Positions 5,597 through 8,227 of a stretch of 9,150 bases of DNA are shown here, piece by piece. Each line of letters starts with the position of its first letter. Positions within the stretch are counted from its first letter, which is position 1. The translations under genes were made by a program, and so were the position numbers. Source of the stretch: a virus. Its lineage: Duplodnaviria; Heunggongvirae; Uroviricota; Caudoviricetes. The stretch lies in the IMG/VR virus record IMGVR_UViG_2541047807_000006. One strand, given 5' to 3'. The notes under the pieces were generated by a model that saw nothing but the letters and a program-made list of their open reading frames with translations, did no database searches and had not been told where the DNA came from.

Positions 5597-5618
5597 GCCG
5601 GAGCAATCCGCCTTTTTT
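5597..5618 (+). terminator. Terminator-like hairpin GCCGGA-GCAA-TCCGCC followed by T6; 5' end of repeat copy 1
   Basis: Seen directly: 6-bp stem with one C-C mismatch, a GNRA-type GCAA loop, then TTTTTT. The structure, not the stem sequence, is shared with the copy-2 hairpin. Confidence 0.45.
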
Positions 5619-5692
5619 ATGGGTCCTCCCGGTGGAGTGGTCTGCCACGGGGCGGGAGCGTCGCGGAAAAAGGCTGGTTTTTGCATTTTCAT
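5608..5692 (+). repeat. Direct repeat copy 1 (85-bp conserved core, GC-rich with internal dyad symmetry)
   Basis: Three mismatches over 85 bp against 8143-8227. Contains nested complementary segments CTCCCG...CGGGAG and GTGG...CCAC. Confidence 0.85.
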
Positions 5693-5879
5693 GGCGGCGG
5701 CAGCATGTGTGATAATTTATTGATAATTAAAAGTTATTTCTGTTTTCACCTGTACAATATTTTTTTCTCCCTGTCATTAGACCAGTTTGCAATTAATTGA
5801 AATATATAAATAAATCTGTTTTTCACCTGCCAGGTGGAGTTGCCTGTGTCAAAACGTGTTCAGATGGCGGGATATTTAT

Positions 5880-5902
5880 GCCGGATTTTCTCCGGCTTTT
5901 TT
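5880..5902 (+). terminator. Rho-independent terminator-like hairpin GCCGGA-TTTTC-TCCGGC followed by T6, in the leader upstream of the capsid operon
   Basis: Seen directly: perfect 6-bp stem, 5-nt loop and a downstream TTTTTT tract, about 100 bp upstream of the first ORF of the capsid operon. Confidence 0.55.
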
Positions 5903-6004
5903 GTGTCTGAATCTCATTAATCTATTTTTATGATAGAAATATGTTTATCTACCACTTTTATCGATCAATAATGTGCACAGTTTAGTCAGTAAGAGGAAGT
6001 TACT

Positions 6005-6211
6005 GTGAGTTGTATTAATGACCTGAACACGGGCGATATCAGGGGTGGTTCCGTTCATCTGGATGCGCAGACCGTTATGCGCCTTAAGCAGTACAGGATC
6101 GACCATATAAATCATCATCCTGACAAACCATTACCAGGTGTGGCGCAGATTGTCAGACATGCCGTAAACACCTGGCTTAATCAGAATGGTTTTGCATCGG
6201 TGGGGGAATAA
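6005..6211 (+). CDS. Hypothetical small protein, 68 aa, GTG start, translationally coupled to the protease-capsid gene
   Basis: GTG at 6005 preceded by AAGAGGAAG. The stop TAA overlaps the ATG of the next gene (TAATG at 6209-6213). No recognisable motif. Confidence 0.45.
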   Translation: MSCINDLNTGDIRGGSVHLDAQTVMRLKQYRIDHINHHPDKPLPGVAQIVRHAVNTWLNQNGFASVGE

Positions 6212-8124
6212 TGAATCGCTGGTACACCATTAAGGCGGCGGATGTTCGTGGAGCGGCGGATATATCTATCTATGAGGAGATTGGCGGCTTCGGTGTTACT
6301 GCAAAGCAGTTCGCGGAAGACCTGAAAGCCCTTGGCGATGTTTCACATATCAATCTGAGGATCCATTCACCAGGTGGTGATGTGTTTGAAGGCATCGCCA
6401 TCTATAACCTGCTACGGAATCATCCGGCAGACATTACGGTTTATATCGATGGTGTTGCGGCTTCAATGGCTTCGGTGGTCGCAATGGCTGGCGATCGTGT
6501 AGTGATGCCGGAGAACGCCATGATGATGATCCATAAACCGTGGGGGATCTCTGGCGGAAATGCTGGCGATATGCGTGATTATGCTGATTTGCTGGATAAG
6601 GTGGAAACCGTGTTAATCCCTGCTTATGCCAGAAAAACGGGCAAATCAGCACAGGAAATTACCGCCATGCTGGAGGATGAAACCTGGATGGATGGGAAAG
6701 AATGCCTTAAGCACGGTTTTGCTGATGAATTGTTGCCATCCGTCAGAGCAATGGCGCGAATTGAATCGAAACGCACAGGAGATTTTTTACATATGCCGGA
6801 AACCATTAAAGGAATGATTACACCGCCACAGGGAGCGGCAAATATTGCTGGTAATGAACAGAAGCGCATCAATGGAATAAGTGAAGTGTTTAGCCTGTTC
6901 GGCAGTCGTTACGACGGGATCAAAATGGCGTGTCTGGAAGATGCATCATGTACACCGGAAATGGCCCGTGAAAAGCTGTTGAACGAGCTGGGGCGCGAGT
7001 CCACGCCATCCAATAAAAATACCCCGCCTCATATCTATGCCGGAAACGGAAACATAACAGGTGATGCAATTCGTCAGGGGCTTTATTCCCGTCTTGGGTA
7101 TGAACGCCCTGAACGAGGCAACCCTTACGCGATGATGAGCCTTTTTGAAATGGCCCAGGCATCACTGGTTGATCGTGGTATCACTGTGAGCGGTTTTATT
7201 AATCGCTCGCAGGTTGTTAATGCGGCTTTTACACACAGCAGCAGTGATTTTTCTCATATTCTGGCTGGTGGGGCTGAAAAATCTGTACTGAAAGGCTGGC
7301 AGGACAGCGGCGAAACGTTCCAGAAATGGACGCGTACCGGTTCGCTTTCAAACTTTCATGAAGCAAAGCGCGTTGGTCTGAATGGTTTTTCAAAGCTGGA
7401 TAAAGTACCGGAAGGTGCGGAATATAAATACATCACCACCAGCGATAAAGGTGTACCTATTGCGCTGGCCACGTACGGGAATATTTTTTCCGTTACCCGT
7501 CAGGCCATTATCAACGATGACCTGACCCAGTTAACTACAATCCCCATGGCGATGGGACGCGCAGCCGCCAGAACAGTTGGCAATCTGGTTTATCTCCTGT
7601 TAACCAGCAACGGCAAGTTTACGGATGGTAAAGCGTTATTCCATGCCGATCATAAAAATCTTATTGCGAAGGATATGGACATGGTGGGGCTTGATGAAGC
7701 CCGTAAGCGGATGCGCCTCCAGGAGGATGCTAACGGCGACTCCCTGAATATTACCCCTGCTTTTGTTCTGGTCCCTGCCGCGCTGGAATCTGCCGCGCGT
7801 CGCGCCATTTTGTCATCGTCATCAGTCTTTCCGGTTGGTGATGAGAGCACTATCAATCAGAACCCCGGCATCATTAACGTGGTGAAAGATATGGCAGAAG
7901 TAATTGTTGAGCCACGTCTTGATAAGGCCAATAGCAAGGAATGGTATGTAGCCGCAGCTAAGGGGATGGACACAATAGAAGTCGCTTATCTTGATGGGAT
8001 GGATACGCCATATCTTGAGGAGCAGGTGGGCTTTACTGTTGATGGTGTCGCCTGGAAAGTACGCATAGATGCAGGTGTCGCGGCCCTCGATTATCGCGGA
8101 TTACTGAAATCGAGTGGAGCATGA
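6211..8124 (+). CDS. Fusion protein: N-terminal ClpP-family (S14) prohead serine protease domain plus C-terminal phage major capsid protein domain, 637 aa
   Basis: N-terminal about 180 aa carries ClpP hallmarks seen directly (GVAASMASVVAMAG for the Ser region and MMMIHKPWG for the His region). The C-terminal about 350 aa has the composition and ending (FTVDGVAWKVRIDAGVAALDYRGL) typical of HK97-fold or Mu gpT-like major capsid proteins. A GGGGGA Shine-Dalgarno is upstream. Confidence 0.88.
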   Translation: MNRWYTIKAADVRGAADISIYEEIGGFGVTAKQFAEDLKALGDVSHINLRIHSPGGDVFEGIAIYNLLRNHPADITVYIDGVAASMASVVAMAGDRVVMPENAMMMIHKPWGISGGNAGDMRDYADLLDKVETVLIPAYARKTGKSAQEITAMLEDETWMDGKECLKHGFADELLPSVRAMARIESKRTGDFLHMPETIKGMITPPQGAANIAGNEQKRINGISEVFSLFGSRYDGIKMACLEDASCTPEMAREKLLNELGRESTPSNKNTPPHIYAGNGNITGDAIRQGLYSRLGYERPERGNPYAMMSLFEMAQASLVDRGITVSGFINRSQVVNAAFTHSSSDFSHILAGGAEKSVLKGWQDSGETFQKWTRTGSLSNFHEAKRVGLNGFSKLDKVPEGAEYKYITTSDKGVPIALATYGNIFSVTRQAIINDDLTQLTTIPMAMGRAAARTVGNLVYLLLTSNGKFTDGKALFHADHKNLIAKDMDMVGLDEARKRMRLQEDANGDSLNITPAFVLVPAALESAARRAILSSSSVFPVGDESTINQNPGIINVVKDMAEVIVEPRLDKANSKEWYVAAAKGMDTIEVAYLDGMDTPYLEEQVGFTVDGVAWKVRIDAGVAALDYRGLLKSSGA

Positions 8125-8131
8125 CAACAAG

Positions 8132-8153
8132 GGCGGCGACAGCCGCCTTTTTT
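8132..8153 (+). terminator. Rho-independent terminator hairpin GGCGGC-GACA-GCCGCC followed by T6, 8 bp after the capsid stop; also overlaps the cosN-like 10-mer
   Basis: Seen directly: perfect 6-bp all-GC stem, 4-nt loop and a TTTTTT tract. The left arm lies within GGGCGGCGAC (8131-8140). Confidence 0.7.
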
Positions 8154-8227
8154 ACGGGTCCTCCCGGTGGAGTGGTCTGCCACGGGGCGGGAGCGGCGCG
8201 GAAAAAGGCTAGTTTTTGCATTTTCAT
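8143..8227 (+). repeat. Direct repeat copy 2 (85-bp conserved core)
   Basis: About 96% identical to 5608-5692. Lies between the capsid stop and the small-terminase promoter region. Confidence 0.85.

Follow-up and report, generated by a model that had tools for sequence, protein, structure and literature searches.

Two direct repeats around the capsid gene of an Escherichia coli phage satellite, interpreted as lambda-type cos packaging sites

The 9,150-nt virus record IMGVR_UViG_2541047807_000006 (IMG/VR; Caudoviricetes), the whole stretch of DNA analyzed here and referred to as the window, carries two nearly identical repeats in direct orientation, one on either side of a capsid gene. This arrangement raises the question of what such a pair of repeats is for. 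A first-pass annotation of the sequence had listed regulatory and RNA-based roles alongside a duplicated terminase-recognition module. In this study, comparison with phage and bacterial genomes indicates that both repeats are almost certainly lambda-type cos packaging sites that differ in their cosB class. The best explanation of the locus as a whole, to which we assign a probability of roughly 80%, is that they are the two cos sites of a ~10-kb phage-inducible chromosomal island (PICI) of the EcCICFT073 family.

Anatomy of the repeats

A repeat search of the window returned one two-copy family in direct orientation, at 5599-5692 (copy 1) and 8134-8227 (copy 2), with a length of 94 nt, 93% identity and a distance of 2535 bp, a similarity far beyond chance in 9 kb. 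From the motif CCGCC-T6 onward, 5608-5692 and 8143-8227 form an 85-bp core with three mismatches (5619 T/C, 5661 T/G, and 5677 G/A), exactly as the first-pass annotation had counted. This core aligns base for base with both ends of phage lambda: lambda reads ACGGGTCCTTTCCGGTGATCCGACAGGTTACG, the cohesive end GGGCGGCGACCT, and then CGCGGGTTTTCGCTATTTATGAAAATTTTC, and the window reads ACGGGTCCTCCCGGTGGAGTGGTCTGCCACG, GGGCGGGAGCGG, and CGCGGAAAAAGGCTAGTTTTTGCATTTTCAT at the corresponding positions. A 12-nt 5' cohesive end, GGGCGGGAGCG(T/G), is thereby predicted at both copies, with the nick after ACG and with CGCGG following the end. In copy 1, cosN with the predicted end GGGCGGGAGCGT would lie at 5650-5661 (+ strand), where the left end of lambda aligns, and by analogy with lambda the nicks are predicted at 5649/5650 on the top strand and at 5661/5662 on the bottom strand. 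In copy 2, cosN would occupy 8185-8196 (+ strand), and its predicted end is identical over all 12 bases to that of phage mEp460.

The remaining parts of a cos site are found at the expected distances. The cosQ motif GGGTCCT, as defined in Fig. S5 of PMC6092414, is present at 5621-5627 in copy 1 (by alignment with the right end of lambda) and at 8156-8162 in copy 2 (both + strand), in each case 29 nt before the predicted nick, compared to 30 nt in lambda. A spacer common to both copies follows cosN at 5662-5692 (CGCGGAAAAAGGCTGGTTTTTGCATTTTCAT) and 8197-8227 (both + strand) and corresponds to lambda bp 13-43, between cosN and R3. The likeness to lambda thus extends from cosQ ~30 nt before the nick over ACG/GGGCGG, the 12-nt end and CGCGG to a gene for the small terminase subunit (TerS) ~190 to 197 nt past the nick. 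In contrast, the cohesive end of the window, GGGCGGGAGCG(T/G), differs from GGGCGGCGACCT of lambda, the cosB regions are unrelated to lambda R3/R2/R1, and the TerS is of the DUF1441 type rather than Nu1.

Phage genomes place the same core at their physical ends. When phage genomes were searched with the repeat, the matches to lambdoid phages fell on, or close to, the termini of linear records; the first base of the Tritos record corresponds to window position 5650 (query position 54), and that of cdtI, a second independent record, likewise opens with GGGCGGGAGCGT, i.e., at the predicted end. When 21 cos sites of prophages and of islands in E. coli and other genera were aligned, cosQ (nearly invariant), ACG/GGGCGG, and CGCG emerged as the invariant blocks. 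The proposal of a duplicated terminase-recognition module was therefore essentially right but had its label inverted, as the part common to both copies comprises cosQ, cosN, and the spacer, on which the large terminase subunit acts in cutting and termination, while it is cosB, recognized by the small subunit, that differs.

Sequence inspection and folding both bear out the hairpin and T6 run that had been noted ahead of each copy. The hairpin of copy 2 (GGCGGC-GACA-GCCGCC plus T6; 8132-8153, + strand) is a strong terminator past the capsid gene (-16.2 kcal/mol; z -5.7 versus shuffles), and a terminator is annotated after the capsid gene of mEp460 too. That of copy 1 (GCCGGA-GCAA-TCCGCC plus T6; 5597-5618, + strand) is a weak intrinsic terminator closing the replication module (-8.6 kcal/mol; z -2.4); its weakness in the window is due to a C-C mismatch. 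Among relatives, the stem is perfect (GCCGGAGCAATCCGGC) in island loci L091, L097, and L099 and different in L092. Because the copy 1 stem is actually damaged in the window, the earlier argument that structure is kept while stem sequence is not carries little weight. Both hairpins serve the units upstream of them as ordinary terminators. A hairpin with a T6-7 run stands directly before both island cos positions and before cos1 of EcCICFT073 (L007 14500-14530), whereas neither precedes the inverted orphan cos sites or those phage cos sites that were examined. The T-run of copy 1 reaches into the TTTA(C/T) stretch of the extended homology at cosQ.

Two cosB classes in one island

Identity between the copies stops at +43 from the nick, and divergence starts at +44, at the place assigned to the R3-type site for TerS or Rpp (bp 48-65) in phage and PICI cos (Murialdo & Feiss 2022 Viruses). 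Judged by position, the TerS-binding sites of both copies would lie in the divergent part. The cosB of copy 1 (5693-5845, + strand) belongs to the cdtI/Tritos/HannyBb class; it opens with GGCGGCGGCAGCATGTG at the R3 position, contains two TTTTCACCTG repeats, and is 94% identical to Tritos, HannyBb, and cdtI (record positions 44-204). Identity among islands is 92-97% in this region. Over 233 bp spanning the cos junction of Tritos (window 5621-5853), identity is 93%, and the homology, at 93-94% to the cdtI/Tritos class, runs eight bases into the phage terS gene. What is left of that gene at 5846-5853 (+ strand), 196 nt past the nick, is a remnant of its start, GTGTCAAA (ATGTCAAA in Tritos). As the phage homology ends there, terS does not follow copy 1. 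Copy 1 is thus, by sequence comparison, a complete phage cos including cosB that lacks terS. Just past the truncated start stands a terminator-like hairpin (GCCGGATTTTCTCCGGC plus T6; 5880-5902, + strand), which marks the right end of the segment absent in other genera; homology to the islands of those genera resumes at ~5892-5910.

The cosB of copy 2 (8228-8380, + strand) is of an mEp460-like class, opening with TCGTCATCATCATC at the R3 position, where prophages and islands of other genera have GTCATCATCATCATGTG, and sharing 73% identity with mEp460 cosB. It is followed by the island's own small-terminase homolog (DUF1441, PHROG 141; 8381-8866, + strand, with the start as annotated in E. coli CUVET16-819), and window 8154-8811 is 74% identical to the cos and terS of mEp460. 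The gene starts 196 nt past the nick, compared to 191 nt in lambda and 197 nt in Tritos. At the protein level, the homolog shares 62% identity with mEp460 TerS over 158 residues, while Tritos TerS is 48% identical over the C-terminal half only. Tritos and mEp460 themselves are closely alike in the major capsid protein (99.7%), adaptor (100%), and large terminase subunit (TerL; 87%), in contrast to 42% for TerS and unrelated cosB regions. Judging from these comparisons, one head module seems to be combined with either of two packaging-specificity classes, a case comparable to lambda and phage 21. A plain tandem duplication of one cos is ruled out for the window by the two cosB regions of different phage classes. 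The cohesive ends differ at base 12 (T at window 5661, G at 8196); the same T/G polymorphism occurs among phages (T in Tritos and cdtI, G in mEp460) and among islands at either position, and this base seems to be tolerant.

The genes of the window follow the Gram-negative PICI layout, in which int, alpA, and a primase/replicase with an adjacent iteron origin precede a packaging module and the whole spans ~10-15 kb between att sites. A tyrosine integrase (1-1239), AlpA (1659-1868), a DUF4222 protein, and a D5-type primase/helicase (3391-5223) were identified with Pfam, and the primase is followed by iterons, copy 1, ORF68, the protease-capsid gene, copy 2, the DUF1441 protein, and an open reading frame (ORF) of 95 aa. 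The GGTGAACAG iterons are dense, occur in both orientations at 5222-5460, directly past the primase gene, and presumably constitute the replication origin of the island. ORF68 (PHROG 4934; 6005-6211, + strand) encodes 68 aa; an ORF of equal length but dissimilar sequence occupies the same place before the capsid gene of EcCICFT073. The gene bracketed by both cos sites (6211-8124, + strand) encodes a fusion of a ClpP-like prohead protease and a major capsid protein with 57% identity to the protein of Tritos and mEp460. The earlier statement that each copy heads a morphogenesis unit holds loosely, with ORF68 and the protease-capsid gene after copy 1 and the small-terminase homolog after copy 2. 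The island keeps this fusion at full length without a portal gene or terL, and size redirection, interference, or no role at all are candidates for its function; deletion of the capsid homolog of EcCICFT073 left interference with lambda unaffected (PMC6092414). A 303-aa ORF at 1879-2790, only the last ~90 residues of which match a PHROG family, is probably not one gene; its CFT073 counterpart (81% nt identity; L007 7200-8043) is annotated as small YlcI/YnfO (-) and Icd-like (+) genes.

The closest complete copy, an island of ~10 kb in E. coli CUVET16-819 (99.6% identity over 5560-8900), lies between rcnR and thiM. It runs from the capsid-protease gene over DUF1441 and one small ORF into chromosomal thiM and contains no terL, portal, or connector genes. 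The backbone is akin to EcCICFT073 (int 79% nt identity, last ORF 73% aa identity, and further blocks common to both), and the element is an EcCICFT073-type cos-PICI with a capsid homolog. Identity as a capsid-forming PICI (cf-PICI) is ruled out by the absence of terL, portal, and connectors from this complete relative. PDB matches were sought for the DUF1441/TerS homolog, ORF68, and the last ORF; none were found, and hence none to RppC (6HLK/6HN7). Likewise, an Rpp identity was rejected for the DUF1441 protein and the adjoining small ORFs, as no PDB match was obtained and the DUF1441 protein is a near-full-length TerS homolog.

Distribution of the copies and rival explanations

The core was found in 2492 of 5426 complete E. 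coli genomes, at a median of one place per genome. Wherever a fuller match comes with a listed feature, it adjoins a DUF1441 or terminase gene in a prophage or island; no feature is listed for many of the short matches to the core alone. The start of an island-type ORF68 and capsid region was detected in 182 of the 5426 genomes, and copy 1 with its cosB joined to downstream island sequence was detected in 156. Thirteen islands, including the window, were sampled. Eight of them have an identical arrangement of two direct cos sites, and nine contain both copies, with the cosB class constant per position except in L092. This island, from E. coli RM11911, has three cos sites at 3781 (+), 6318 (+), and 7203 (-) with three cosB classes, namely, cdtI/Tritos; lambda-like, with the end GGGCGGCAGACG, before a gene annotated as terminase small subunit; and inverted mEp460-like. 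Its replication gene is also different (a RepA-family helicase). Two further islands have copy 2 only; in place of copy 1, their spacer between replication module and ORF68 contains a HEPN-domain gene (minus strand; L093 3230-3943 and L104 1827-2540), and this spacer behaves like an accessory or defense hotspot. The last two of the 13 are truncated or recombined (L101 4886-5586; L098 3322-4661); one has phage tail genes directly past the capsid gene and has lost copy 2, and the other has its capsid gene truncated by an insertion bearing another integrase.

Island-type loci in Trabulsiella, Yersinia, Buttiauxella, Phytobacter, Kluyvera, and Moellerella have a single cos, directly past the capsid gene, and no cos was found upstream of the capsid gene in those loci that cover the upstream flank. 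As copy 2 is conserved across genera and copy 1 was found only in E. coli islands, copy 2 is, on comparative grounds, the ancestral site of the island family and copy 1 a later acquisition of the E. coli lineage in a variable spacer. Within the islands, the copies have not evolved independently. In three of five distinct island lineages, the two cosQ-side halves match each other exactly in a variant specific to that lineage, whereas the cosB sides retain their class (window 5626-5649 versus 8161-8184, L092 3757-3780 versus 6294-6317, and L100 2358-2381 versus 4892-4915). When partners were shuffled, the observed cosQ-side similarity was reached in 4 of 120 permutations. This pattern points to apparent gene conversion between the direct repeats, which may also be how the 3' arm of the copy 1 hairpin came to be damaged in the window. 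Hybrid cos sites made by terminase are an unlikely cause of the homogenization; the flanks upstream of the hairpins differ, and short-patch gene conversion fits better.

Several observations weigh against two working packaging sites. If a molecule started at one copy and ended at the other, its ends would anneal with a mismatch at base 12 (T versus G). The TerS and cosB of the island are 62% (aa) and 73% (nt) identical to those of mEp460, and their specificity may differ from that of mEp460. Copy 1 is dispensable, being absent from the other-genus loci that cover both capsid flanks and from 2 of the 13 E. coli islands. Furthermore, deletion of the orphan cos2 of EcCICFT073 raised transfer by lambda and phi80 (PMC6092414); an extra cos can therefore be costly with a non-cognate helper.

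A rival explanation makes copy 1 a by-product without function. In this scenario, a cdtI/Tritos-class prophage fragment (from cos to the terS start) recombined into the variable spacer and looks intact only through recent origin and gene conversion with copy 2. Its restriction to the E. coli lineage, the HEPN gene in the same spacer of L093 and L104, the homogenized cosQ-side halves, and the finding that loss of the EcCICFT073 orphan cos did not lower transfer (PMC6092414) all fit such an origin. However, cosQ, cosN, and the entire cosB are free of decay in all 11 sampled copy 1 sites (the window and 10 further islands), which come from islands with different integration sites and replication genes. 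Moreover, the combination of an orphan phage-type and an island-type cos occurs independently in EcCICFT073, with another phage class and in another orientation, and in threefold form in L092, and both EcCICFT073 sites were functional when cloned (PMC6092414). We therefore regard a by-product as doubtful. Alternatively, copy 1 could act mainly as a decoy that titrates helper TerS or terminase off helper DNA, with island spread being secondary. A helper-class cosB at 93-94% identity would suit this purpose, and helper packaging is a known target of PICI interference (PMC6739421). Yet bound terminase would package the island anyway, making a decoy hard to tell from a packaging site, and cosN and cosQ are intact, with no sequence sign of blocked cleavage. 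Titration as the main function is thus improbable, while a decoy role as such is compatible with both helper use and a by-product.

The hairpin and T-run before each copy, the gene block after it, and the local dyad symmetry of the core had suggested regulatory roles, i.e., a terminator combined with a late-promoter or activator site, a structured RNA, or a P4-like RNA target. Any of these is very improbable. The same core stands at the physical ends of phage genomes. A scan for sigma-70 promoters returned none on the + strand after either copy. The structured-RNA proposal fared no better: a scan of the whole window against Rfam (E <= 1) returned only two chance-level matches to eukaryotic families, and when both copies were folded on both strands, the core did not exceed shuffles (z -1.2 to -2.5) and only the copy 2 hairpin stood out. 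The nested dyad symmetry is present in the window but not kept over the 21 related cos sites; imposed on them, it was paired in 73% of cells, compared to 72% after shuffling, with three pairs broken in 13 to 14 of the 21, and the stems lack compensatory maintenance. The analogy with P4 immunity fails, as the element is a PICI and not P4-like. A small minus-strand protein encoded by the repeat, or a chromosomal repeat of the repetitive extragenic palindrome type (REP/BIME), has next to no probability. The minus-strand ORFs 5692-5489 and 8227-8033 do both start inside the repeat with ATGAAAATGC, and some phage records annotate a "hypothetical protein" over the site, but the two are alike only inside the repeat, then unrelated, and have no Pfam match. 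The plus-strand ORFs 5546-5800 and 8121-8279 were likewise rejected as genes, as they match no family and are alike only in the repeat. The number of genomes containing the core might recall REP/BIME elements; however, its fuller matches with a feature lie by DUF1441 or terminase genes of prophages and islands, or at phage genome ends, rather than at random intergenic sites.

Packaging by two terminase specificities and comparison with known satellites

In lambda, TerS binds cosB and positions TerL, TerL nicks cosN, and packaging runs toward terS; termination requires cosQ and cosN of the downstream cos. Two lambda-type cos sites in the island could be used as follows. After helper induction, the island would replicate into concatemers. 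The island TerS would bring helper TerL to copy 2, while the TerS of a cdtI/Tritos-class helper would bring TerL directly to copy 1. TerL would then nick at 5649/5650 or 8184/8185 and package rightwards, and any later cos, for which cosQ and cosN are enough, could end the packaging run when the head has been filled sufficiently. If the two copies are usable by different TerS proteins, a second cos would let a second terminase specificity package the island, and packaging by two terminase specificities is the most likely function of the pair. For copy 1 in particular, the sequence comparisons make use by cdtI/Tritos-class helpers, and thus a widened helper range, slightly better than an even bet.

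The closest precedent is EcCICFT073 itself, for which two functional cos sites were published in 2018-2019 (Fillol-Salom et al. 2018 ISME J; 2019 Mol Cell; PMC6092414, PMC6739421). Its cos1 and cos2 were described as having lambda-like cosQ and cosN and an unrecognizable cosB, and both worked when cloned; cos1 is needed for transfer and is recognized by an RppA-TerS complex, and the choice of cos by a given protein complex is determined by cosB (PMC6092414, PMC6739421). We confirmed the identity of the two sites in CFT073 against the sequences in Fig. S5 (PMC6092414). There, cos1 is on the + strand, with a hairpin and T7 before it and rppA after it, and cos2, which is inverted, lies beyond rppA at a distance of ~750 bp. 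Although the original papers reported no recognizable phage cosB (PMC6092414, PMC6739421), cos2 (L007 15162-15341, minus strand) shares 93% identity with PhiR12-type phages over their cos and cosB (-32 to +147), the match stopping ~50 nt before their Nu1 gene. EcCICFT073 therefore has the same design, an island-type cos by a specificity gene plus an orphan phage-type cos, and on this comparison copy 2 corresponds to the published cos1 and copy 1 to the published cos2.

The two elements thus belong to the same island family, and each has two cos sites with common cosQ/cosN and different cosB, one past a hairpin/T-run and directly upstream of a packaging-specificity gene, the other an orphan phage copy. 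They differ in that the EcCICFT073 sites are inverted, ~750 bp apart, and placed around rppA, while those of the window are direct, 2535 bp apart, and placed around the protease-capsid gene. Furthermore, the specificity gene is an Rpp in EcCICFT073 and a full-length TerS homolog in the window, and the cohesive-end and helper classes are lambda/phi80/PhiR12 in the former and cdtI/Tritos/mEp460 in the latter.

Among phages, copy 1 is 93-94% identical to cdtI, Tritos, and HannyBb from cosQ to the terS start codon, and copy 2 with its terS is 74% identical to mEp460. However, these phages have one cos, followed by terS, terL, adaptor, portal, and capsid genes, whereas island copy 1 has lost terS, and the island cos sites are preceded by terminators while those of the phages are not. 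P4, cos-type Staphylococcus aureus pathogenicity islands (SaPIs; SaPIbov5/SaPIbov4), and pac-type SaPIs with TerS-S follow the same logic, bearing the cos of a helper or encoding a TerS by which helper TerL is diverted to the satellite; SaPIbov4 has been cited as also having two putative cos sites (PMC6092414). Their lineages and sequences are unrelated, and the island in the window appears to combine both strategies. The cf-PICIs resemble it as PICIs with their own capsid protein and a terS homolog, but encode capsid, protease, portal, head connectors, HNH, TerS, and TerL (Alqurainy et al., bioRxiv 2022), in contrast to the closest relative of the window, which lacks terL, portal, and connectors. 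A literature search for this exact architecture returned nothing beyond the EcCICFT073 papers. Dual-cos satellites are already published, and the window is a new example rather than a new kind of element. The new details are the direct orientation around a capsid gene, the origin of the extra cos as an orphan helper-phage cos, and the presence of three cos sites in some islands.

On a more tentative level, the cos arrays of enterobacterial PICIs could be a modular helper-range device, in which one cos is served by the TerS or Rpp of the island and each extra cos is a captured, terS-less cos of another lambdoid helper class. The extra classes would then be cdtI/Tritos here, PhiR12 in EcCICFT073, and three classes in RM11911, giving several terminase specificities per island, and such a device would account for the so-far-unexplained cos2 of EcCICFT073. 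Two direct sites could also give packaged forms with or without the capsid gene.

Overall, the speculative regulatory and RNA-based interpretation of these repeats is replaced by a concrete one, that of packaging sites. A widespread E. coli PICI subfamily (~180 of 5,426 complete genomes) combines a cos for its own TerS with an orphan helper-type cos, while the known principles of cos packaging and PICI piracy remain unchanged. The match of EcCICFT073 cos2 to the recently sequenced PhiR12 class suggests a general rule by which extra cos sites are keys to additional helpers, and the predicted ends and cosB classes provide handles for predicting helper-satellite pairs from genomes.

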